Below, in pieces: positions 1 through 64,000 of a stretch of DNA of 64,000 nucleotides. The DNA lies in IMG/VR virus record IMGVR_UViG_2561511107_000003, positions 6,264 to 70,263 of that record; one strand, written 5' to 3'. How positions within the stretch are numbered: position 1 is the stretch's first letter; every line of letters starts with the position of its first letter. The position numbers were made by a program, and so were the translations under genes. A model generated the notes under the pieces. The model had not been told where the DNA came from. It saw only the letters and a list, made by a program, of their open reading frames with translations, and did no database searches. The DNA is from a virus. Its lineage: Duplodnaviria > Caudoviricetes.

Positions 1-20
1 CTGTCGTCATCCATCGATAA

Positions 21-74
21 AGACTACTGAACAACCTCTTGCACGTCACATGTGACGTGTGGCAGTCTCAGCGC
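21..74. promoter_or_regulatory. Divergent promoter/operator region (phage immunity switch)
   Basis: Perfect 18-bp palindrome CACGTCACATGTGACGTG at 42-59, between TTGCAC (39-44) and CAGTCT (63-68). ATG at 75 would be leaderless. A minus-strand TAGTCT lies at 21-26. Confidence 0.6.
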
Positions 75-359
75 ATGCCGGACACCACACATGACGTGTC
101 GAGCAGCATCAGACACGGCGACTCCGCCGTATCGTCGGTATCCGTCCGCTGGACCATGGTCAAGCAGGCACTCGGCGTCACCCGCAACGAAGACGCCGCC
201 ACTGCCTGCGGCGTGCCGCTGCGCACCCTCGACCGTCTGTTCGAGCGACCTGACCACAGCCTGATTCGCAACGCGAGAGCGGTCACCGCCGCGACCGGCA
301 TCACCCTGGAAGAACTGATCGCCTGCCAACGCCGCCCTGCGCTGAGCGAGGCGGCATGA
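75..359 (+). CDS. Cro-like HTH DNA-binding protein
   Basis: 94 aa, HTH-like NEDAATACGVPLRTLDRLF; first gene of the early operon behind the operator. Confidence 0.65.
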   Translation: MPDTTHDVSSSIRHGDSAVSSVSVRWTMVKQALGVTRNEDAATACGVPLRTLDRLFERPDHSLIRNARAVTAATGITLEELIACQRRPALSEAA

Positions 360-526
360 GCACCAAGCCAATGCTTGTCGGTGACGAGGATTGGATGATC
401 CGGGTCGCCGTCGACGCGGCCCCCGAGCTGTCGTCCGACGCGATCGACAAGCTGCGGCGCGTTTTCGCACCCGCCCAGCCGAGCCGCCCGACCTCGGTTG
501 CCCAGCCGAGCCGGCGGGCCGCATGA
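356..526 (+). CDS. Small hypothetical protein (MSTKPMLVGDEDW...)
   Basis: 56-aa ORF with ATGA overlap to the upstream gene. Confidence 0.55.
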   Translation: MSTKPMLVGDEDWMIRVAVDAAPELSSDAIDKLRRVFAPAQPSRPTSVAQPSRRAA

Positions 527-617
527 CGAAGGTCAACAGCAGTAAGTGAGCCCCCCGCCGCAGGCACGGCGAAGGGCTCGACACCCGGACCAGAACCTGA
601 TCAAGCAAGGAGTCCAG

Positions 618-1253
618 ATGCAATCGCAGAGTAACCCAACTACCGGCCCCGGCTACTCGGCCGCTGAGCTGCGGACCCGGGAGGTTCAGGCCGGCGACCT
701 GACCGCCGGCATGACCATCCTCTACGAGCTTGGCGCGGGCCTTGGTGTCGAGCCCCTGACCGTGTCACGTGTCCGCCGCGACGGGGGCAGGACCGCCCTG
801 GTCACGTTCGAATTCGTCGACGACGAGACGCCGTTCAACGTCGAGGAGACCGTCACCGTCGTCGGCTGGGATGGCGCGGCGCCGCTGGCCGAGTCGGACT
901 ACTGGCAGGCCCTGGCCGCTGATCTGCGTGCGGCGGCTGACCGGCTGGCCACCCTCGCCGGCACGCCGGCCCCCGAGGTGCGCGCGAGCCTGTACCTGCA
1001 TGTCGGGCCGTTCATGGAGCGGGGTAGCGGGGAACGCCGTCCTGTGGTGGACGCGATCGCTGACGCCCTCAGCGGGACGGCCGCAGAGGTGGGGTCGGGG
1101 GCGTTCTGGGAGCACCGGGCGGATGTCACGGTCGGCGCGTTGGGCGTTACCGCGTGGACCCGGATTCCGGCACCGGAGGACGCGGAGACGGCGGCGCTGC
1201 GGGCTGAGGTGGCCGCGCTGCGCGCCCAGCTCGCCGAGGGCGGTGCCCGGTGA
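618..1253 (+). CDS. Hypothetical phage early protein
   Basis: AAGGAG RBS before ATG 618; coupled to the next gene. Confidence 0.7.
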   Translation: MQSQSNPTTGPGYSAAELRTREVQAGDLTAGMTILYELGAGLGVEPLTVSRVRRDGGRTALVTFEFVDDETPFNVEETVTVVGWDGAAPLAESDYWQALAADLRAAADRLATLAGTPAPEVRASLYLHVGPFMERGSGERRPVVDAIADALSGTAAEVGSGAFWEHRADVTVGALGVTAWTRIPAPEDAETAALRAEVAALRAQLAEGGAR

Positions 1254-1462
1254 GCGCCCCGGCGTGCGACGCCTGCCCGCGCACCGCGCGGTGGCGGATC
1301 CGTCCCGCCTGCTCGTGCCTCCTGCCGGCGGCAGGGGACAGGCAGTACGCCTGCACTGAGCACCTCGGGACGGTGACCGGGATGTGGGGTGAGCACCAGC
1401 GGCGGCACACCGGCCGCGGGGCGTTTGACGCGGTGCGCCTCTCCTGGGCGGTGCCCAAATGA
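1250..1462 (+). CDS. Small Cys-rich (Zn-finger-like) protein
   Basis: CDAC...CSC...CTEH; GTGA overlap. Confidence 0.6.
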   Translation: MSAPACDACPRTARWRIRPACSCLLPAAGDRQYACTEHLGTVTGMWGEHQRRHTGRGAFDAVRLSWAVPK

Positions 1463-1689
1463 GCGCCCCGACCTGGCCCCTCACGGCCGACGCCGCCGAG
1501 ATCACCGTCCTGGACCTGGGGTGTGGACACCTGCCCGGGGAGTCCTGCGACGAGGCGTGCGCCTACTGGCGGGGTGTCGCGGCCGGCGAGTACCCGCCGC
1601 CGGAGGCCTACATGCCGGTGACGCTGCCGCCGCACTGCCCCGAGCTGCTGCCGCTGACCGATCCGGCGCTGCGGGGGGTGGCCTCATGA
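1459..1689 (+). CDS. Hypothetical protein
   Basis: ATGA overlaps on both sides. Confidence 0.6.
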
Positions 1690-1919
1690 CTCGCCGCGAA
1701 CTGTCCATCCACCCCGGCCCGGGGGTGTGCCCCGGATGCCTGACCGTGCCCGGCCGCACCCACGGCCCGGCGTGTCCGGCGGTGGAGGGTGCCCGGCACG
1801 CTGCCGCGCCGCATCCGCACGCAGACACCGTCCGCATCGTCGTCGGCCTGCTGGTCGGCGTGCCCCTCGGTGCCGCCATCTGCCTCCTGGCCGCCCTGCT
1901 GATCTGGAGCCTCACATGA
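1686..1919 (+). CDS. Small membrane protein with CxxC/HxxxC motif
   Basis: CPGC...HGPAC then a C-terminal hydrophobic helix. Confidence 0.6.
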
Positions 1920-3109
1920 CTACGAACCTGCTTGATGTATTGACTGCCGGGCGCGCTCTGCCTGCCGGCTGCGACCGGTGGGGCATCCGGACCGGCGAGT
2001 GCCCGGTCGAGGTCGGTGACGGGATCTGTCTGGCGCGGACCTGGGGGGCGATGGCCTCCGCCGGTGTGCCGGCGGTGACCCTGCTGTTGTGTGCGTGGTC
2101 GACCGCTGACCTGCTCTCCGGCGCCAGCGGGGACACGTGGCAGGTGCGGCGAGCGTATGTCGTGGATGTTGTGGACGGTGCGCGTCTGATCCGCGAGCAC
2201 GGCCGCGGAGCGTACCTGCGGGGCGCGAACCTGGGCGGCGCGGACCTGAGGGGCGCGTACCTGGAGGACGCGAACCTATGGGGCGCGAACCTGGAGGGCG
2301 CGTACCTGGACGGCGCGAACCTGGAGTACGCGAACCTGAGGGGCGCGTACCTAAAGGGCGCGAACCTGGGCGGCGCGTACCTGCAGGGCGCGGACCTGGA
2401 GGACGCGGACCTGGAGGACGCGTACCTGCGGGGCGCGTACCTGCGGGGCGCGTACCTGCGGGGCGCGTACCTGCAGGGCGCGAACCTGAAGGACGCGGAC
2501 CTGAAGGACACGGACCTGGACGGCGCGGACCTGGAGGACGCGTACCTGCGGGGCGCGTACCTGCGGGGCGCGTACCTGCAGGGCGCGAACCTGGAGGACG
2601 CGGACCTGGCGGGCGCGAATCTGAAGGGCGCGAATCTGAAGGGCGCGAATCTGAAGGGCGCGAACCTGAAGGGCGCGAACCTGAAGGGCGCGGACCTGCG
2701 GGGCGCGGACCTTGAGGACGCGTACCTCGACGGCGCGGACGCCGAGCGGGCCCGCCTCCAGGACAAGCTGGACGTAACCACCGCCGCCTACGAGCGACGC
2801 ACCCGGCAGGCCCACGCCGACCGGGACCAGGCGATCAGCACCAGCCAGCAGCTACGGGTGGGCCTGGTCGCCGCGCGGGAGAAAGCCGCGGCGTACCCGG
2901 CGCATGTCATCGAGGCCGGTGGACCTGACCACTACGCCGCCGGGCAGGCCCAGGCACTACACGCGGCGATCCTCGCGGCCGACTGGAACACCGTCCGACA
3001 GATCGCCGCCGACCCGTGGACGGCGGGAGACGACGTGGACACGGCGCGGGGTGCGCTGGCCGGCGCCGGCGAACTGGGCGACGTCAACCGTGAGGAGGCG
3101 GGGCGGTGA
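1916..3109 (+). CDS. Pentapeptide repeat protein
   Basis: 35 tandem A(Y/N/D)Lxx repeats. Confidence 0.9.
2210..2734 (+). repeat. 35 x 15-bp coding tandem repeat (GCG nAC CTG nnn Gn C consensus)
   Basis: Read directly from the sequence. Confidence 0.95.
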
Positions 3110-3282
3110 CCCCGACCTGGCGGGGCTGGCTGCCCGCACCGCGCACCCTGCCGATGCGGCCACCTACCTACCGGCCGCCGTGTCCCACCTGCGGTGACGG
3201 GCTGCCGGGACTGCTGGCCCTGTGCTGGAAGCCGCTGTGCCGGACCGCATTCCTTGACGACGACGCGAGGTACGACCAGTGA
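3106..3282 (+). CDS. Small Zn-finger-like protein (CPTC...CWKPLC)
   Basis: 58-aa ORF, GTGA-coupled on both sides. Confidence 0.55.
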
Positions 3283-4100
3283 ACATCACCGCGCCCGGCG
3301 TCTACGACATCACTGAAGAGAAATACCACGCCCACCCGGCCCTCTCATCCACCGGCGCCCGAAAGCTGCTTCCCCCGTCTTGTCCCGCCATCTACCGACA
3401 TGAGCAAGACAACGCCCAGCCGCACAAGCGCGAATTCGACTTTGGCCGCGCAGCCCACATGCTTGTGCTTGGTGCCGGCCCGCAACTCCACGTCGTCAAT
3501 GCCCCCAACTACCAAACCAAAGACGCCCGTCAGGAACGCGACGAGGCCTACGCACGTGGTGAGGTGCCGCTGCTCCCAGAAGAGTTCGACACCGCTCAGG
3601 CCATGGCCGCCGCACTGCGCCGCCACCCACGCGCCGCCGAACTGTTCACTGCTGACGGCATTGCCGAACAGTCGCTGTTCTGGATCGACACCGACACGGG
3701 CGTGGAGTGCCGGGTACGCCTGGACTACCTGACCGACCGGATCGTCGATTACAAGACCACCACCTGCGCCAACCCCGGGCACATCGCCAAGACGGTGGCC
3801 AACTTCGGCTACCACCAGCAGGCCGACTGGTATCTGACCGGCGCGATCGAACTAGACCTGATCGCCCCCGACGCCGAGTTCCTGTTCGTATTCCAGTCGA
3901 AGACCCCGCCGTACCTCGTGAAGGTCGTCGAGTTGGACGACACCGCGCTAAAGATCGGCGCCGAACGCAACCAGCGCGCACGGGAAACCTTTCGCGACTG
4001 CACCGAGTCGGGCATCTGGCCTGGCTACGGCGACAACATCGAAGTCATCTCGCTGCCCATGTATTTGCAGCGCCGCCACAACGAATGGGTTCTGTCGTGA
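3279..4100 (+). CDS. RecE/exonuclease VIII-like PD-(D/E)XK nuclease
   Basis: YHAHPALSST, CRVRLDYL, IVDYKTT, GYHQQADWY motifs; next to an ERF gene. Confidence 0.85.
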   Translation: MNITAPGVYDITEEKYHAHPALSSTGARKLLPPSCPAIYRHEQDNAQPHKREFDFGRAAHMLVLGAGPQLHVVNAPNYQTKDARQERDEAYARGEVPLLPEEFDTAQAMAAALRRHPRAAELFTADGIAEQSLFWIDTDTGVECRVRLDYLTDRIVDYKTTTCANPGHIAKTVANFGYHQQADWYLTGAIELDLIAPDAEFLFVFQSKTPPYLVKVVELDDTALKIGAERNQRARETFRDCTESGIWPGYGDNIEVISLPMYLQRRHNEWVLS

Positions 4101-4840
4101 CTGACATGCCGAACAACCTGAACGCTGCTCTCGCCCGCCTCCAGATGGAGTTGCCGCGCATCGAGAAAGACCAGACCGCAAAAGTCGACACCAAGTCGGG
4201 TGGCAGCTACCGGTACACGTACGCCGACCTGGCGCGGGTGTCACAGAGGGTTCTGCCGAATCTCGGCAAGCTGGGGCTGGCGTTCACGTCCCGGCCGACG
4301 ACCAAGGACAACCGGCTGGTGCTCGTGTACGAGTTGCGGCACATATCCGGTGAGATGATTGAAGGTGAGTGGCCGCTGCCGGACCGGGGCTCCCCGCAGG
4401 AGATCGGTAGTGCGATCACCTACTTTCGCCGGTACTGCCTGTGCGCGGTGACGGGTGTGGCGCCGGAGGGCGACGACAACGACGCCGCGCTGGCTGAGCA
4501 GGCGTCGGCCCACCGTAACCGGTCTTCCCGGTCACCCCGCTCGGATCAGCCGTCGAGCGGCAACGGTGGGCAGGAGCCGCCGATCACCGGCGAGCAGAAG
4601 GCACGCATGCAGCGGGCTTTCGGTGAGTTGGGTATCGCCGGCCAGGGTGATCGGCTCCAGTACGCGATCGGGGTGGTCGGCCGACAGATCAAGTCGTCGA
4701 CTGAGCTGACGCAGTTCGAGGCCGGGCGTGTCATCAAGCAGGCCGAGCGGGATGTGGAGAAGCGGCAGCGCGCCGACCGTAACGGTACTGACCGGCCGGA
4801 TGCCGCGAAGCCGGCGGACGCTGTCGGGGTGCCGTCGTGA
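4097..4840 (+). CDS. ERF-family ssDNA annealing protein
   Basis: YTYADL and QEIGSAITYFRRYCLCAVTGVAPEGDDND signature. Confidence 0.9.
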   Translation: MTDMPNNLNAALARLQMELPRIEKDQTAKVDTKSGGSYRYTYADLARVSQRVLPNLGKLGLAFTSRPTTKDNRLVLVYELRHISGEMIEGEWPLPDRGSPQEIGSAITYFRRYCLCAVTGVAPEGDDNDAALAEQASAHRNRSSRSPRSDQPSSGNGGQEPPITGEQKARMQRAFGELGIAGQGDRLQYAIGVVGRQIKSSTELTQFEAGRVIKQAERDVEKRQRADRNGTDRPDAAKPADAVGVPS

Positions 4841-5721
4841 CTTGGTATCTCGGGGAGATGGCCCCGTTCGACACCGAATCAACCGGCACTGATGTGGAGA
4901 ACGACCGGATCGTTTCGGCCACCGTCGCCCGTATCCGCCCTGGCCAGCCCGTTGACGTGCACTCACACCTGATCTCCGTGGACGTGGCCATCCCCCAGGC
5001 CGCCACCGACGTGCATGGCATCACCACCGAGCACGCCCAGGCGAACGGGCAGCCGGCCGCCGTGGTTCTCGACCTGGTAGCGGGGGCGCTCGCTGACGCA
5101 ATGCTCGCCGACGTGGCCGTTGTCGGATCAAACCTGGCGTTCGATTTCACGCTGCTGGACCGGGACTGCCGCCGGCATGGAGTGCCCACAGTCCAACAGC
5201 GGCTAGGGCGTCCGCTCGGGCCGGTCGTGGACGTGTTCGTCATCGACAAGGCACTCGACCGGTACCGGCCGGGCAAACGGCAGTTGGATGCGCTGTGCCG
5301 GCAGTACGGGGTGCGGTTGGACGGCGCCCATGACGCGGAGAACGACGCGTTGGGTGCGGCCCGGGTGGCGTACCGGATCGGGCAACGGGCGCAGCAGGCG
5401 TTGGTCGCTCCGCAGGATGTCATGGACACGTATTCCGACCGGCGCTATCCGGACCGGATCGTGCGGGGCTTCCAGGAGTTCGGGAAGCTGACCCTCGCTG
5501 AGGTGCATGCCGGGCAGGTGGGCTGGTACGCCGAGCAGGCCGAGGGGCTTGCCCAGTATTGGCGGCGGCAGGCCAACGAGTTGGAGTATCAGTCCAGCCG
5601 GGCGTCGGATGACGCGGAGCGGGCGACAGCTCTTGCGGACGCCGAGGATTTGCGGCGGCGCGCCGACGGTGTCACCACCGACTGGCCGATCCGCCCTTAC
5701 GGCGAGCGGGTGCAGCCGTGA
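4837..5721 (+). CDS. DnaQ-like DEDDh 3'-5' exonuclease
   Basis: FDTESTG, NLAFDFTLL, AHDAENDA. Confidence 0.9.
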   Translation: MTWYLGEMAPFDTESTGTDVENDRIVSATVARIRPGQPVDVHSHLISVDVAIPQAATDVHGITTEHAQANGQPAAVVLDLVAGALADAMLADVAVVGSNLAFDFTLLDRDCRRHGVPTVQQRLGRPLGPVVDVFVIDKALDRYRPGKRQLDALCRQYGVRLDGAHDAENDALGAARVAYRIGQRAQQALVAPQDVMDTYSDRRYPDRIVRGFQEFGKLTLAEVHAGQVGWYAEQAEGLAQYWRRQANELEYQSSRASDDAERATALADAEDLRRRADGVTTDWPIRPYGERVQP

Positions 5722-6368
5722 CCGAACTCAGGCAGCATCACGACACCTACGCCACGCTGCGCATCGTCGTGTACGGCACGCCCGGCCCCCAAGGCTCGAA
5801 GACGTTCAAGGGCCGCAGCCGCACTGGCAAAGCGATCATGGTCGAGTCGTCGAAGAAGGTGCAGCCGTGGCGTGAACAGGTGCATGCCGCTGCCCTGACC
5901 GCTCTCAATGACCTTCCTGAGCTGCGCGACGTGTTCCCGCTGGACGGGCCGATTGCCGGCCGGTTCGTGTTCACTCTCCGAAAGCCCCTGTCCGCGCCTA
6001 AGCGCCGACGTACCTGGCCGATCACCTACCCGGACACGTCGAAGCTTCTCCGGTCGACTGAGGACGCGCTGACAACGGCTGGGGTTTGGGTGGACGACGC
6101 CCGTCTGGTCGAGCTCGACCGGCTGGCCAAGGTGTATCCGGGCGAGGATCCGGAGGCACTGGACCGGCCGGGTGCGCTGATCGTGTTGCGGCGGGTCACG
6201 GAGGGGCCAGTGGCCTTTGATCGCGACGTGCGCGGCTACCCGAGTCTCACGGCCGGGCCGCACCCGGATACCCGCCGGCGCTCCGGCCAGCTCACCGCCC
6301 GGCGGCCCGCCACCCGCCCCGCCCTCGCTGACGACAACCACACCCCTGAGGAGGCCACCCATGCCTAA
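5718..6368 (+). CDS. rusA: RusA-like Holliday junction resolvase
   Basis: GTPGPQGSK and PDTSKLLRSTEDALT...WVDDARL. Confidence 0.85.
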   Translation: MTELRQHHDTYATLRIVVYGTPGPQGSKTFKGRSRTGKAIMVESSKKVQPWREQVHAAALTALNDLPELRDVFPLDGPIAGRFVFTLRKPLSAPKRRRTWPITYPDTSKLLRSTEDALTTAGVWVDDARLVELDRLAKVYPGEDPEALDRPGALIVLRRVTEGPVAFDRDVRGYPSLTAGPHPDTRRRSGQLTARRPATRPALADDNHTPEEATHA

Positions 6369-6777
6369 CATCAGCCCCCCGCCGTCGCAGATTCTGCGCG
6401 ACGCCGCCCGACGCATCCGCGACCTCGCCGCCGAGGCCGCCCCCTCCGGCACCCCGCCCCACGGCTGGTCCGGCGGCATCGGACACGACAACAGCCCGAT
6501 GCTGTTCAGTGGCCCTACCCAACACGGCTACCACACGGGCATCATCTTCCACTTCCAGGAGGAAGCGCTGTGCGACGCCTGCTCCCGGCCGACGGCAGGG
6601 GACGTCGCGCACATGGCGGCGTGGCATCCGGATGTGGCGGTGCAGGTGGCCGCCTTCTTGGAGCAGGCCGCTGACGTTGTCGCCGTGTCACCGTCGCCGT
6701 TCACGGCGATCGCGTTGCGGATCGCCGCATTCTTTCCGGTGCAGGAGCCGGCCGCCGTTGTGGTCGTGTCCGCATGA
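6361..6777 (+). CDS. Hypothetical phage protein
   Basis: GAGGAGG RBS; HMAAWHPDVA motif. Confidence 0.7.
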   Translation: MPNISPPPSQILRDAARRIRDLAAEAAPSGTPPHGWSGGIGHDNSPMLFSGPTQHGYHTGIIFHFQEEALCDACSRPTAGDVAHMAAWHPDVAVQVAAFLEQAADVVAVSPSPFTAIALRIAAFFPVQEPAAVVVVSA

Positions 6778-24322: not shown

Positions 24323-25558
24323 ATGACCGTCAATGTTCTCGACGTTCTGCCCGAGGTTGCCACCATGCGGGCGCAGGACGCATCAGTCGAATCGATCTAC
24401 GGTGGTGAGGGACGCAGCCTGTCGGCAGCGGCCCGCAGGCGCCGGCAGCAGGAAAACGCCGCCTACCAGCGGCACCTCGTGGAGGCCGCGCAGTTGTACG
24501 CGCAGGTCATCAACGGCAACCGACGCGCCGCGCTCGATTTCCAGGAAGCGATGACCACCAGCGACTTCCAGTTGCTGTTCGGTGACGTGTTGGATCGGCA
24601 GATCCTGGCGAACTACCAGTCGATGCCAGTGCAATGGGACTCTGTTGCCCGCAGGGGCCGGGTCCGCGACTTCCGCACCGTGAAGCGCTACACGCTAGAC
24701 GGCGGAGAGGCAATCCTCGACGAGGTCAAACAGCAGGGAGAGTACAAGGCCGCGAAACTCACCGACGGCAAATACGAATACGCCGTCACCAAGCGTGGCC
24801 GGCGGATCCCACTGGCCTGGGAGACGCTGATCAACGACGACCTCGACGCGTTCGCCGACATTCCCCGCCGACTCGGCAACGCCGCCCGCCGCTCGGAGGA
24901 GCGATTCTGCACGACGCTGTACGCCACGGCGACGGGGCCAGCCTCCGCGTTCTTCAACGCCGGCAACCGGAACCTGATCGCCCAGGCGACGTACGCGAAC
25001 CTGCCGGACAACCCGGATCTGGCCGTGGACGGCCTGCAGTACGCGTTCGAGGTGCTCGGTCGGCAGGTCGACACCGACGGCGCACCGATCTACGTCGAGG
25101 GTGCCGTGCTGGTGGTGCCGCCCGCGCTCGAGGTGCCCGCCCGCAACATCCTCAACGCCACCGAGATCGTCACCGCCGCCGGGTCGTCCGGTGTCGAGTC
25201 TGACGCGGGTCGCACCGACCAGCTGCGGGTGGCGAACTGGATGGCCAACCGGACCCGGCTGGTCGTTAACCCGTGGCTGCCGATCGTCGACACCACCACG
25301 GGGAACACCGCCTGGTATTTGTTCGCAGACCCGGGCGTCGGCCGGCCGGCCATGGAGATGGGGTTTCTGATCGGTCACGAGTCGCCGGAACTGTTCCAAA
25401 AGACCCCGAACGCGGTTCGGGTCGGCGGGGGCCCGATCGACCCCACCGACGGGGACTTCGAAACCGACTCGGTCGAGTGGAAGCTGCGTCATGTGTGGGG
25501 CGGCACGCTGATGGACCCGAAGTCAGCGGTCGCGTCGAAGGGCACGAACTCGGCATGA
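24323..25558 (+). CDS. Major capsid protein (Mu gpT-like)
   Basis: TTSDF, LINDDLDAF, LVVPPALE, WYLFADP. Confidence 0.9.
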   Translation: MTVNVLDVLPEVATMRAQDASVESIYGGEGRSLSAAARRRRQQENAAYQRHLVEAAQLYAQVINGNRRAALDFQEAMTTSDFQLLFGDVLDRQILANYQSMPVQWDSVARRGRVRDFRTVKRYTLDGGEAILDEVKQQGEYKAAKLTDGKYEYAVTKRGRRIPLAWETLINDDLDAFADIPRRLGNAARRSEERFCTTLYATATGPASAFFNAGNRNLIAQATYANLPDNPDLAVDGLQYAFEVLGRQVDTDGAPIYVEGAVLVVPPALEVPARNILNATEIVTAAGSSGVESDAGRTDQLRVANWMANRTRLVVNPWLPIVDTTTGNTAWYLFADPGVGRPAMEMGFLIGHESPELFQKTPNAVRVGGGPIDPTDGDFETDSVEWKLRHVWGGTLMDPKSAVASKGTNSA

Positions 25559-40533: not shown

Positions 40534-40588
40534 GATCGTCGATGCGGTGCCGCCGGTGACGTCCCGGCCGGCGCCGACCAACAACACG

Positions 40589-40627
40589 AAGCGCCCCACC
40601 CGGCCTCACGGCCGGGTGGGGCGTTTT
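40589..40627. terminator. Bidirectional terminator (GGCC-TCAC-GGCC family, copy 1)
   Basis: CGCCCCACCCGGCC TCAC GGCCGGGTGGGGCG TTTT between convergent genes. Confidence 0.8.
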
Positions 40628-40695
40628 GCGTGTGGATTCGTTAGCGGCGGTCGTCGCGGATCTGATAGTGCCGCCTGTACGGCGACTGTGATGCG

Positions 40696-61373: not shown

Positions 61374-61701
61374 CGTGGCAGTCTCGACCATGCGGTACGT
61401 GCCGTGGACCCGCACGACCGGCCAGTATCGCTGTCGCCTACACGACTCAGGGGATCGTGTCGATGGGTGGCGGGTGCAGGTGACGGCGGAGCGGAGACAA
61501 GCGTGTCCGTAGCCCAAATCCAACGCAGCTCTGGGTGTCGTACCGTCCGTCTACCCTGGGGTCCGCTGGCCCGCCTTTGCCCCCGTGAAGGCGGGCCGGT
61601 GTACGTCGACCCAACTTCGTGGGACGGCCTACGCGGTCGTTATGACAGCTAGGACGGCCCGAGGCCAAGAGGACCGGGCTCGCCGACTGGGAGGTGAGGC
61701 G

Positions 61702-62418
61702 ATGATCAGCGTCGTCGGTGTCGCGTCCCGCCGGGGCACCCGCGACCACAACGCGGACGCCGGCCACGCCTACCGAGGCGACGACGGCACCGTCGTCGCG
61801 GCGGTCATCGACGGCACCGGCAACTCAGCCGAGCTGGCCGAGCTGGCCGACGCGATGGCGATCGTCGTCGCCCGCGTCGGGTACCGGCGCGGCGGTCTCG
61901 CCGCTCTCATCACCGCCTCCGACCTGATCCACGAGGCCCACGACGCCGCTGCCGTCACGGTCCGGGTGGATCCCGACGGCGGGGTCCACACCCACTGGAT
62001 CGGCGACTGCCGCGCCTGGTGGTGGACCGGTGCCGAACTGCGTCAGCTCACCACCGACCACACCATGGGCCAACTCCTGCGCGTCTCCGGCGGTGAGTCC
62101 GCCGCCCGGGTCGCCGCCACCCACGACCACTGGCTGCGCCTGGGTATCAGCGGTGCCACCCCCGCCACCGTCGCCGAGGTGAGCGGGCTCGACGTCGACA
62201 GCACGACGCTGGGCGTCGGCCAGCTGGTCCTGCTCACCTCCGACGGGGTCCACGACCAGCTCGACCAGGACACCATGCTCGAGCTGGTCGTGGCCCACGC
62301 CGCCGTTCCGCAGAGCCTGGCGGACGCACTGGTCGCCACCGCGAGGCCGGATCACCGGGGCTACCGGGATGACGCCACCGCGGTCGTCGTGGCGATGACC
62401 GCGGTGGCGCACGAATGA
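61702..62418 (+). CDS. PP2C/PPM-family Ser/Thr protein phosphatase
   Basis: R..NAD, VIDGTG, IGDCR, LTTDHT, LTSDGVHD, DDATAVV. Confidence 0.9.
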   Translation: MISVVGVASRRGTRDHNADAGHAYRGDDGTVVAAVIDGTGNSAELAELADAMAIVVARVGYRRGGLAALITASDLIHEAHDAAAVTVRVDPDGGVHTHWIGDCRAWWWTGAELRQLTTDHTMGQLLRVSGGESAARVAATHDHWLRLGISGATPATVAEVSGLDVDSTTLGVGQLVLLTSDGVHDQLDQDTMLELVVAHAAVPQSLADALVATARPDHRGYRDDATAVVVAMTAVAHE

Positions 62419-62426
62419 TCCGGTCC

Positions 62427-62462
62427 CAACGACGGGTGCGCCGGCGCACCCGTCGTTGGTTT
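62427..62462 (+). terminator. Intrinsic terminator
   Basis: CCAACGACGGGTGCG CCGG CGCACCCGTCGTTGG TTT. Confidence 0.75.
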
Positions 62463-62507
62463 CGGTGCGAGCGTGGACACCGAACCGCACGCCGCGCTAT
62501 CGGTCAC

Positions 62508-62596
62508 GCACGCCCCGCCCACGCGGGGGTGATCCGTCGCTAAGCACTCGGTGGGTGCGGACGCAGGGTCGACTTGTCCCCGCCACGCGGGGTAGA
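62508..62596 (+). CRISPR. Type I-E-like mini-array A (repeat, 36-nt spacer, degenerate repeat)
   Basis: GCACG CCCCGC CCAC GCGGGG GTGATCCG (29 nt) and CTTGT CCCCGC CAC GCGGGG. Confidence 0.7.
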
Positions 62597-62640
62597 CGAC
62601 AGCGCCCCGCCTGGCCTCACGGCCAGGCGGGGCGCTGTCG
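62597..62640. terminator. Bidirectional terminator (GGCC-TCAC-GGCC family, copy 2)
   Basis: Perfect 20-bp stem with TCAC loop. Confidence 0.8.
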
Positions 62641-62651
62641 CGTGTGCGGGG

Positions 62652-63053
62652 TCAGCGGCGGCCGGAGCGGATCTGATAGAGCCGGGCCGGCGTCACGCCG
62701 GCGGCTGCAGCAATGTCGTCTCGCCGCAGCTCAGTCCGCTGCATTGCCGTCCGCACCAGCTCGTCGCGGCGGGCGGTCAGGCGGCCGATCTCGCTGGTCA
62801 CCTCCTCCAGCTCCACCAGTATCCGGGCGGCGGCCGTGGCGACGGCTCCGACACTGTACGACGCGTCAACTGCACGGGTGATCACGCCGACGCCGGCCGG
62901 AGTGAGGGTGCGGGTCGCGATGTCCCACAGCTCCGGGTCGTCGCGGATCTCATCCACATGCACCCGCACCGTGTCGACGGCAGCAGCGTGGGTGTCTATG
63001 CCGTGGTGGTCGGCGAGGGTCCGGGCGAGATCGTCAATGCTGGTTCTGGTCAC
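62652..63053 (-). CDS. Protein with C-terminal HTH
   Basis: GGAGGA RBS; RDDIAAAAGVTPARLYQIR. Confidence 0.8.
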   Translation of the reverse strand: MTRTSIDDLARTLADHHGIDTHAAAVDTVRVHVDEIRDDPELWDIATRTLTPAGVGVITRAVDASYSVGAVATAAARILVELEEVTSEIGRLTARRDELVRTAMQRTELRRDDIAAAAGVTPARLYQIRSGRR

Positions 63054-63081
63054 CGCTTCCTCCTGTGGCTTGGATACCATG

Positions 63082-63122
63082 AGCCTATAGCCTGCTATAG
63101 CTATATGTCAAGCACGCTATAG
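63082..63122 (-). promoter_or_regulatory. Promoter overlaid with CTATAG palindromes
   Basis: TTGACA-18-TAGGCT on the minus strand; CTATAG x3 plus CTATAT. Confidence 0.7.
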
Positions 63123-63205
63123 AACAGCGATGGTGTGGGCCTGCCACAATGACCCGCCCCCTGCGGGGCCTGACAGCCGAGACGCTTGGGGGTACGCTCC
63201 GTTCA

Positions 63206-63278
63206 TTGGTCCCCGCGCAGGCGGGGATGACCCACTGTCGCTTCGCGACATGCTCCCCACGCATGTGGGGTTAGGGAC
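63206..63278 (+). CRISPR. Type I-E-like mini-array B (repeat, 15-nt hairpin spacer, variant repeat)
   Basis: TTGGT CCCCGC GCAG GCGGGG ATGACCCA and ATGCT CCCCAC GCAT GTGGGG. Confidence 0.75.
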
Positions 63279-63285
63279 CACGCAA

Positions 63286-63329
63286 ACGACGCCCGCCCGG
63301 CCGTGAGGCCAGGCGGGGCGCTTCGTCGT
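63286..63329. terminator. Bidirectional terminator (GGCC-TCAC-GGCC family, copy 3, inverted)
   Basis: GCCCGGCC GTGA GGCCAGGC stem. Confidence 0.75.
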
Positions 63330-63337
63330 GCCTGGCG

Positions 63338-64000
63338 TCAGCGAGGGACTCCGTGCACGAGGTAGTTCAAAGGCACCACCACCCAGGTGCCGGGCTCGTC
63401 GACTCGCTCTACCTCCAACTCGCCAGCATCGTTGAGCCGTGCGTCTGGTCGCAGCGCCTGCACCTCGTCGAGGTTGTCGCCGGTCCACATGACCGCCTGC
63501 TGTGTTGACCTTGGTCGGCCTGGTTTGCGTTGCCAGCCGGCGGCGAACGCGTCGATGCTGCTCCGGGTGTATACGGGGCCGGCGGCCAGCCGGGCGACCG
63601 GGTCCGGGAACGCCTCGTTCTCCCGGGCGAGTTGCTCGACTCGCTGCCGTGACACGTTGAGGATTCGGGCGATCTCGGCGTTGCCGACGAGGCTCATCGG
63701 GTGTGGTCGGGAGATCTCCCGTTCGTGGTCCTCGGCGGTGATCACGCGTAGGGCGGTGACCTCGGGTGCGCTGCCGATTGCCTGGCTGTGCGCGGTGCGG
63801 GCCGCGCGGGCGGCCGTGTCGGCGGCCTGGCGGACGGTGGGCGCTTCGATGGTCATCTCCAGGCGTACCCGGTCGACGCCGGTGTCGACGATGATGCCGT
63901 AGCCGGGTAGGACGCGGGTGATCTCGGCGAGTTGGTCGTCGGTGGGCTGTGCGCTCCAACGGCGAATGGTTACGGCGGCGTGCCACTGTTGGGGTGTCAT
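63338..64000 (-). CDS. AlpA/excisionase-like HTH protein (possible antitoxin); start lies at the window edge
   Basis: LVGNAEIARILNVSRQRVEQL...FPDPVARLAAGPVY. Confidence 0.75.
   Translation of the reverse strand: MTPQQWHAAVTIRRWSAQPTDDQLAEITRVLPGYGIIVDTGVDRVRLEMTIEAPTVRQAADTAARAARTAHSQAIGSAPEVTALRVITAEDHEREISRPHPMSLVGNAEIARILNVSRQRVEQLARENEAFPDPVARLAAGPVYTRSSIDAFAAGWQRKPGRPRSTQQAVMWTGDNLDEVQALRPDARLNDAGELEVERVDEPGTWVVVPLNYLVHGVPR

Follow-up and report, generated by a model that had tools for sequence, protein, structure and literature searches.

A degenerate type I-E mini-array in an actinomycete provirus as a candidate gene for one crRNA-like RNA

Introduction

Can a phage without cas genes carry a CRISPR-derived gene for a single RNA that would work through the immune system of its host? 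The question is raised by a 64,000-nt stretch of DNA, here called the window, which covers bases 6264–70263 of one 70,263-bp virus record, a provirus, and has a GC content of 68.7%. At its right-hand end lie two short repeat–spacer–hairpin elements, unit A and unit B.

Phages have recently been recognised to disarm or redirect host immunity with RNA mimics of CRISPR repeats, of which several kinds are described. Racrs, which consist of solitary repeats, bind Cas6 and Cas7 and prevent Cascade from forming, and SRUFinder, the search used for them, discards units with a partial repeat within 100 bp (PMC10651486). In CreR the 5' handle is retained in psiR1 and the 3' handle in psiR2; its spacer has 15 consecutive bases in common with a site beside AAG upstream of casA (10.1101/2023.03.10.532045). 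Liu et al. (10.1101/2024.10.29.618823) give 219 viral Cracr candidates, including 20 in I-E arrays, from phyla that include Actinomycetota; in their Salmonella prophage I-E Cracr array the spacers are 24 and 21 nt long, and the last repeat has a 1-nt deletion, a smaller loop and poor processing. The spacers of viral mini-arrays mostly target related viruses, according to a review (PMC11656645). Cracr screens start from known host CreR/CreA and Racr screens drop units with a second partial repeat, so elements of the kind described here can escape both. The locus is a clean actinomycete example, with several minimal units, three repeat families and a conserved seed half.

Results

The locus lies in a temperate phage genome

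Pfam matches in the window include a phage capsid protein, an SPP1-type Dit, a Gp37-like tail protein, DnaB, a beta clamp, SSB and methylases, and none of the 60 scanned ORFs of the phage record matched a Cas family. The capsid, Dit, tail, DnaB and clamp genes and a large serine recombinase, together with the lack of a Cas match, identify a temperate actinomycete siphovirus and not a host CRISPR locus. As the window is a provirus without cas genes, the reading of the locus as a host mini-array becomes that of a phage element using host Cas proteins. No tRNA was detected in the window, and no Rfam family reached the gathering score there. In the phage collection, the capsid reached at best ≤40% identity to any entry, and neither the mini-array locus nor the surrounding 24 kb had a DNA match.

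Two other parts of the record were also described. Bases 1–6400 of the record (left of the window) hold, in order from the left end, a tyrosine integrase, then an 818-aa ATPase matching PADLOC mad3 and mad8, a 103-aa C-terminal SDR fragment and finally the large serine recombinase; the prophage probably ends near record base 3900, with the first 3.9 kb belonging to the host or another element. Window positions 40600–61300 form a block of about 21 kb between a methylase gene and a PP2C-like gene, a gap of only about 1–2 kb in provirus G003. This block, which may be an inserted island, contains large ORFs (818, 509 and 517 aa) without Pfam, PHROG or PADLOC match, and it also encodes HTH regulators, a Phd-like domain protein, NUDIX and GntR.

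Unit A contains the parts of one crRNA

The first-pass annotation had described a 29-nt I-E repeat, a 36-nt spacer and a second stem reduced to the hairpin, and we found all three in place (Table 1). The psiR1 of both units has the make-up of a type I-E repeat, save for the 5-nt flank of unit A, which is non-canonical (ACGCA/CG against GTGCT or CTGCT). The psiR2 hairpin of unit A, CCCCGC-CAC-GCGGGG, has a 3-nt loop that corresponds to a 1-nt deletion relative to repeat 1, and TAGACGAC follows downstream in place of a handle. The repeat spacing in unit A is 65 nt, against 61 nt in real arrays. As the period is 65 nt in unit A and 44 nt in unit B, and the 60 ORFs gave no Cas family match, the locus is not a type I-E array. 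The handle orientation of both units is compatible with the plus strand only.

Table 1. Positions of the features of the mini-array locus in the window
Feature	Position	Strand	Description
Terminator of upstream PP2C-like gene	62426–62465	+	17-bp perfect palindrome 62426–62459, T-rich tail
Weak promoter-like site	62474–62503	+	TGGACA-18-TATCGG; positional homologue of V2's TTGAGC-17-TATGGT
psiR1, unit A	62508–62536	+	5-nt flank 62508–62512, stem-loop 62513–62528, 8-nt handle 62529–62536
psiR1 stem-loop, unit A	62513–62528	+	CCCCGC-CCAC-GCGGGG
psiR1 handle, unit A	62529–62536	+	GTGATCCG
psiS, unit A	62537–62572	+	36 nt; longer than canonical spacer
psiR2, unit A	62573–62592	+	flank CTTGT 62573–62577, then 15-nt hairpin 62578–62592
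Palindromic hairpin	62597–62640	.	20 bp, perfect; no T tract
P0001	62652–63080	-	142-aa protein, C-terminal HTH; CTATAG repeats in promoter region
psiR1, unit B	63206–63234	+	TTGGT, stem-loop CCCCGC-GCAG-GCGGGG 63211–63226, handle ATGACCCA
psiS, unit B	63235–63249	+	15 nt; holds its own 5-bp hairpin GTCGC-TTC-GCGAC
psiR2, unit B	63250–63270	+	canonical flank ATGCT, hairpin CCCCAC-GCAT-GTGGGG; no handle
Terminator-like hairpin	63279–63322	.	related to 62597–62640, arms 84% complementary
P0002	63338–64000	-	220-aa protein, excisionase-like HTH; ATG at the record's last bases

The repeat hairpins are more numerous than expected by chance, as CCCCGC-N3-4-GCGGGG occurs three times in 64 kb against 0.17 expected, with at least three copies in 0 of 100 shuffles, and all three hairpins fall within 62513–63226. 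RNA folding placed both unit A repeat hairpins in the centroid structure; the fold z-score of unit A was -6.6, largely due to the terminator.

Terminators and the promoter candidate of unit A

Terminators had been claimed on either side of unit A. Both hairpins (62426–62459 and 62597–62640) are real, the downstream one without a T tract, and the latter is probably a bidirectional terminator common to unit A on the plus strand and the HTH gene P0001 on the minus strand. Related GC-rich palindromic hairpins stand at convergent gene ends at 40586–40634, 62597–62640 and 63279–63322, with the shared core GCCCCGCC-GGCC-loop-GGCC-GGCGGGGC, and the three appear to form one family of bidirectional terminators that lack T tracts. 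The weak promoter candidate that had been pointed out upstream of unit A is present at its position, and it fails a consensus scan, its -10 element lacking T at position 6; no consensus promoter was found in 62300–63450. No RNA run among those searched for the mini-array stretch was listed as containing it.

Directly upstream of unit A lies a PP2C/SpoIIE-like phosphatase gene (61585–62418, phrog_5650), whose protein matched no locus in the genome contig collection. Downstream, the intergenic region 63081–63140 contains three CTATAG motifs that overlap a minus-strand TTGACA-16-TATAGG, 3 nt before the ATG of P0001, a layout which suggests that P0001 is leaderless and autoregulated; the same region would have to drive unit B too. 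P0001 gave no tblastn match in phages, and PADLOC returned nothing for the neighbourhood proteins except weak HTH-type matches for P0002.

Unit B is a second mini-array of another repeat family

Unit B (63206–63270) is a second mini-array with a repeat spacing of 44 nt. Its 24-mer of stem-loop and handle occurs exactly in I-E arrays of Streptomyces, Nonomuraea and Rhodothermales, its psiR1 has a weak Rfam match to CRISPR-DR28 (E 0.5), and the CCCCAC-GCAT-GTGGGG stem-loop of its psiR2 is present in other I-E repeat families. Units A and B have the same plan: each consists of a stem with handle, a spacer, and a flank with stem, followed by a strong hairpin. This palindromic hairpin is shared with an HTH gene that runs towards the unit on the minus strand; for unit B and the next HTH gene it is that at 63279–63322.

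The unit A repeat is that of real arrays and recurs in viruses

The 24-mer of stem-loop and handle of unit A was found exactly in the repeats of real I-E arrays with a 61-nt period, among them those of a Kineosporiaceae MAG, a Streptomyces MAG, Micromonospora arida and Plantactinospora endophytica. Searching IMG/VR for CCCCGC-N4-GCGGGGGTGATCC yielded 49 loci, of which 12 were array-like, 21 were one- or two-spacer units with a 60–66-nt period, 6 had a period of 44–52 nt and 10 were solitary; many of the 49 end in a repeat with a degenerate handle and then a terminator. A provirus of Pseudonocardia asaccharolytica (L028/L008/L109) has an independent mini-array with the same 24-mer as unit A, in which a 20-nt spacer (49-nt period) is followed by a second repeat without handle and a terminator.

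Relatives and the paralogue V2

Mosaic modules are shared between the studied phage and three IMG/VR records, G003, G004 and G005, of which two are proviruses and one is linear. In G003 and G005, a 1.3-kb stretch with the PP2C-like gene and unit A is 100% identical. Unit B is kept in G003 and is deleted (about 128 nt) in G004, where half of its second hairpin remains. All three relatives carry a paralogue of unit A, V2 (L029 1494–1720 in G003), behind an N6/N4 methylase gene; V2 is absent from the studied phage, which has only a terminator at the corresponding position. Since unit B was lost in G004 and V2 is missing here, individual units are dispensable.

V2 begins with TTGAGC-17-TATGGT, which fails the consensus scan as the candidate of unit A does, and continues with the 24-mer of unit A, a 32-nt spacer (61-nt period) and a handle-less repeat. 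A second unit, of the CCCCAC family, is fused to it 2 nt further on; it has the handle GTGTCACG and a spacer of 32 nt, and its final hairpin is followed by a terminator. Both fused units thus have a 61-nt period and belong to different repeat families. V2 faces a small, convergently oriented ORF on the minus strand, which may be an anti-CRISPR candidate.

Comparing unit A with V2 segment by segment, we found 26 of 64 identical positions (about 41%) upstream, 41 of 41 over the stem, the handle and the first 17 nt of the spacer (62537–62553), and 8 of 19 in the rest of the spacer, which has diverged and differs by 4 nt in length. Gene conversion, and not selection, could account for the perfect 41-nt block; no more than two independent paralogues exist.

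These comparisons bear on whether unit A is merely a decaying, functionless duplicate of V2 or a captured array fragment. Relative to V2, unit A has a worse promoter match, a spacer longer by 4 nt and the 1-nt deletion in the psiR2 loop, and units have been gained and lost among the relatives, all of which would fit decay. Unit A is nevertheless 100% identical across three provirus records whose other shared modules are 86–98% identical, its perfect 41-nt block stands amid diverged flanks, and it is the sole carrier of its guide in the studied phage, so that we regard decay as unlikely.

It has also been suggested for solitary repeats (PMC10651486) that repeat copies serve as a site for integration into, or recombination with, host CRISPR arrays. 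Applied to this locus the idea is extremely improbable: the units are internal, between genes and paired with terminators, they represent three different repeat families, and the large serine recombinase at the left end of the record adjoins the truncated SDR gene fragment, which indicates integration in an SDR gene.

No target of the spacer was found

The first-pass annotation had seen no convincing target in the window, and this agrees with our search of the whole 70-kb genome, in which the best match was 23 of 36 bases against 21–24 for shuffled spacers. The BLAST search it had proposed, of the spacer against phages and cas promoters, did not yield a target either: blastn against 50,697 phage records and plasmids, a set in which actinophages of the host are thinly sampled, gave nothing at E <0.9, and in 42 I-E cas loci of genomes other than the lysogens (259 kb comprising cas3, the upstream region and the start of cas8e) the matches did not exceed those of reversed-sequence controls. 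In the whole of the related genome G314, which has an I-E locus, spacer matches were likewise no more numerous than in controls.

The shared 17-mer was searched separately. Allowing ≤3 mismatches, there were 22 matches in M. arida and 17 in P. endophytica, against 10 and 13 in controls, and none in G003–G005 outside the mini-arrays themselves. With ≤1 mismatch, 8 of 401 family-group genomes matched, in unrelated genes, against about 20 control matches. The exact 17-mer was present in IMG/VR at five loci of its own family and at one chance match in a low-GC C5-methylase gene (22/36 overall), and in the species-representative genomes at 14 scattered places, three of them in one conserved gene with the PAM out of register. 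This gene, from other actinobacterial orders, we take to be fumarase/aspartase-like. An origin of both spacers from it was considered and rejected, as any likeness past the 17-mer depends on ad hoc gaps, and the gene comes from outside the host group. The handle plus 11 nt gave three unrelated matches among the species representatives, and the PAM-distal 19-mer of unit A and a 19-mer of the second V2 spacer were found in IMG/VR in mini-arrays only. A search of 301 family-group genomes did not recover the 2-kb mini-array locus itself.

Unit A might still be an ordinary viral mini-array whose crRNA directs the Cascade and Cas3 of the host's I-E system at a competing phage or plasmid, thereby protecting the lysogen against superinfection. 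Its spacer is near full length with seed and handle intact, the V2 spacer is exactly 32 nt, there is no self-match, as a prophage would require, and most viral mini-array spacers are stated to target related viruses (PMC11656645). We consider it of low probability all the same, since no protospacer turned up in IMG/VR, the 50,697 phage records, the plasmids, the three related proviruses or the 401 genomes, and the preservation of only the first 17 nt between the paralogues A and V2 is not explained by full-length targeting.

Isolates with the locus have a type I-E cas operon

A complete I-E locus, comprising two arrays, is present in the related genome G314; its repeat combines the unit B stem-loop with a handle that differs by a single base from the handles of units A and B. 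One of the 30 spacers of this locus (C27:191033–191066) matches the phage capsid gene (24323–25558) at 32 of 33 bases beside AA, the protospacer being at 24818–24850 on the minus strand of the window. Judged from this match, I-E immunity is exerting pressure on the studied phage.

Three isolates with the mini-array stretch, one of which may have yielded the virus record, each have one or more contigs colinear with the cas2-to-cas3 operon of G314, in 4–8 listed pieces, the individual pieces being roughly 75–85% alike. The isolates that carry the stretch therefore have an I-E cas operon, the host subtype expected for a Cracr/CreR-like crlRNA. Neither of the two I-E loci inspected for a CreR-like element showed one, and the spacers of array fragments whose repeats match those of the units had no match to the phage.

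The claim that unit A could yield one near full-length crRNA thus holds in part: the necessary pieces are present, they are 100% conserved in two proviruses and isolates with the stretch have I-E cas genes, while no consensus promoter and no target were found.

Discussion

We propose, giving it about an even chance on the sequence evidence, that unit A derives from CRISPR and encodes one crRNA-like RNA, which interferes with host I-E immunity in the manner of a Racr or Cracr. As the phage has no Cas proteins of its own, unit A can act only through those of the host's type I-E system. A short transcript would start just upstream of 62508 and end at the hairpin 62597–62640, and host Cas6e would cut after each repeat stem to release an RNA of about 64 nt, made up of the 8-nt handle, the 36-nt spacer, 5 nt and the 15-nt hairpin. 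Host Cas5e, Cas7 and Cas6e would presumably assemble on this RNA. The phage may benefit, as with Racr, in that Cas proteins are diverted from phage-targeting crRNAs. Several observations stand against the proposal: the 65-nt spacing and the 3-nt loop of psiR2 could impair Cas6e processing or Cascade assembly, no consensus promoter and, in the collections searched, no target were found, the two inspected I-E loci showed no CreR-like element, the 41-nt block may stem from gene conversion, and individual units are dispensable.

A second, guide-dependent effect is suggested by the perfect conservation of the first 17 spacer bases: the loaded complex might be guided by partial pairing, without cleavage, to some target, as with Cracr and CreR. 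Unit B would act mainly as a decoy, because it has a 15-nt spacer and a different repeat family.

The 17 bases shared by A and V2 may also be a true guide through which Cascade binds, without cutting, a cas or other defence promoter that does not derive from any known CreR, the repeat families being adaptors. We think this improbable. If it is true, the units of three I-E repeat families would be adaptors for different host Cascade variants, and the phage would have a guide-dependent RNA anti-defence in Actinomycetota whose target is unlike those used to discover Cracrs. Should the guide have a target, it would reveal a host gene silenced by a prophage via the host's own Cascade.

Comparison with known systems

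With Cracr and CreR, unit A has in common that it is a phage-borne degenerate I-E mini-array in which psiR1 provides the 5' handle and psiR2 the 3' hairpin. As in Cracrs, its last repeat has lost 1 nt and forms a smaller loop, there are several units per phage, and only the PAM-proximal part of the spacer is conserved in unit A, the spacer of unit B being short. Unit A differs in that its spacer has 36 nt against 21–24 nt in the I-E Cracrs of Salmonella prophages, that units A and B would be separate transcription units with their own terminators and not one array, and that no match of at least 9 PAM-proximal bases to a cas promoter or host CreR was found in the loci and representative genomes searched. 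For want of such a match, unit A is filed as Racr- or Cracr-like, its membership of the Cracrs being unproven.

The viral mini-CRISPR arrays (PMC11656645) resemble unit A in having one spacer between host-like repeats and in the dependence of the virus on host Cas proteins. They differ from the present units, for which no protospacer was found in related viruses, whose repeats are deliberately partial and whose spacers measure 36 and 15 nt.

The Racrs of Camara-Wilpert et al. 2023 (PMC10651486) share with the locus the mimicry of repeats, a prophage without cas genes, a host of the matching subtype, adjacent HTH genes and the expected competition for Cas6 and Cas7; the ids of the related proviruses occurred in none of the seven files of the Racr supplements searched. 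The repeats here are not solitary, as each is followed downstream by a second hairpin, at a distance of 65 nt in unit A and 44 nt in unit B, and unit A with its handle and spacer could form a near-complete Cascade and not an aberrant subcomplex. Phage RNA mimics of CRISPR repeats are already a known kind, and unit A is a further example of it.
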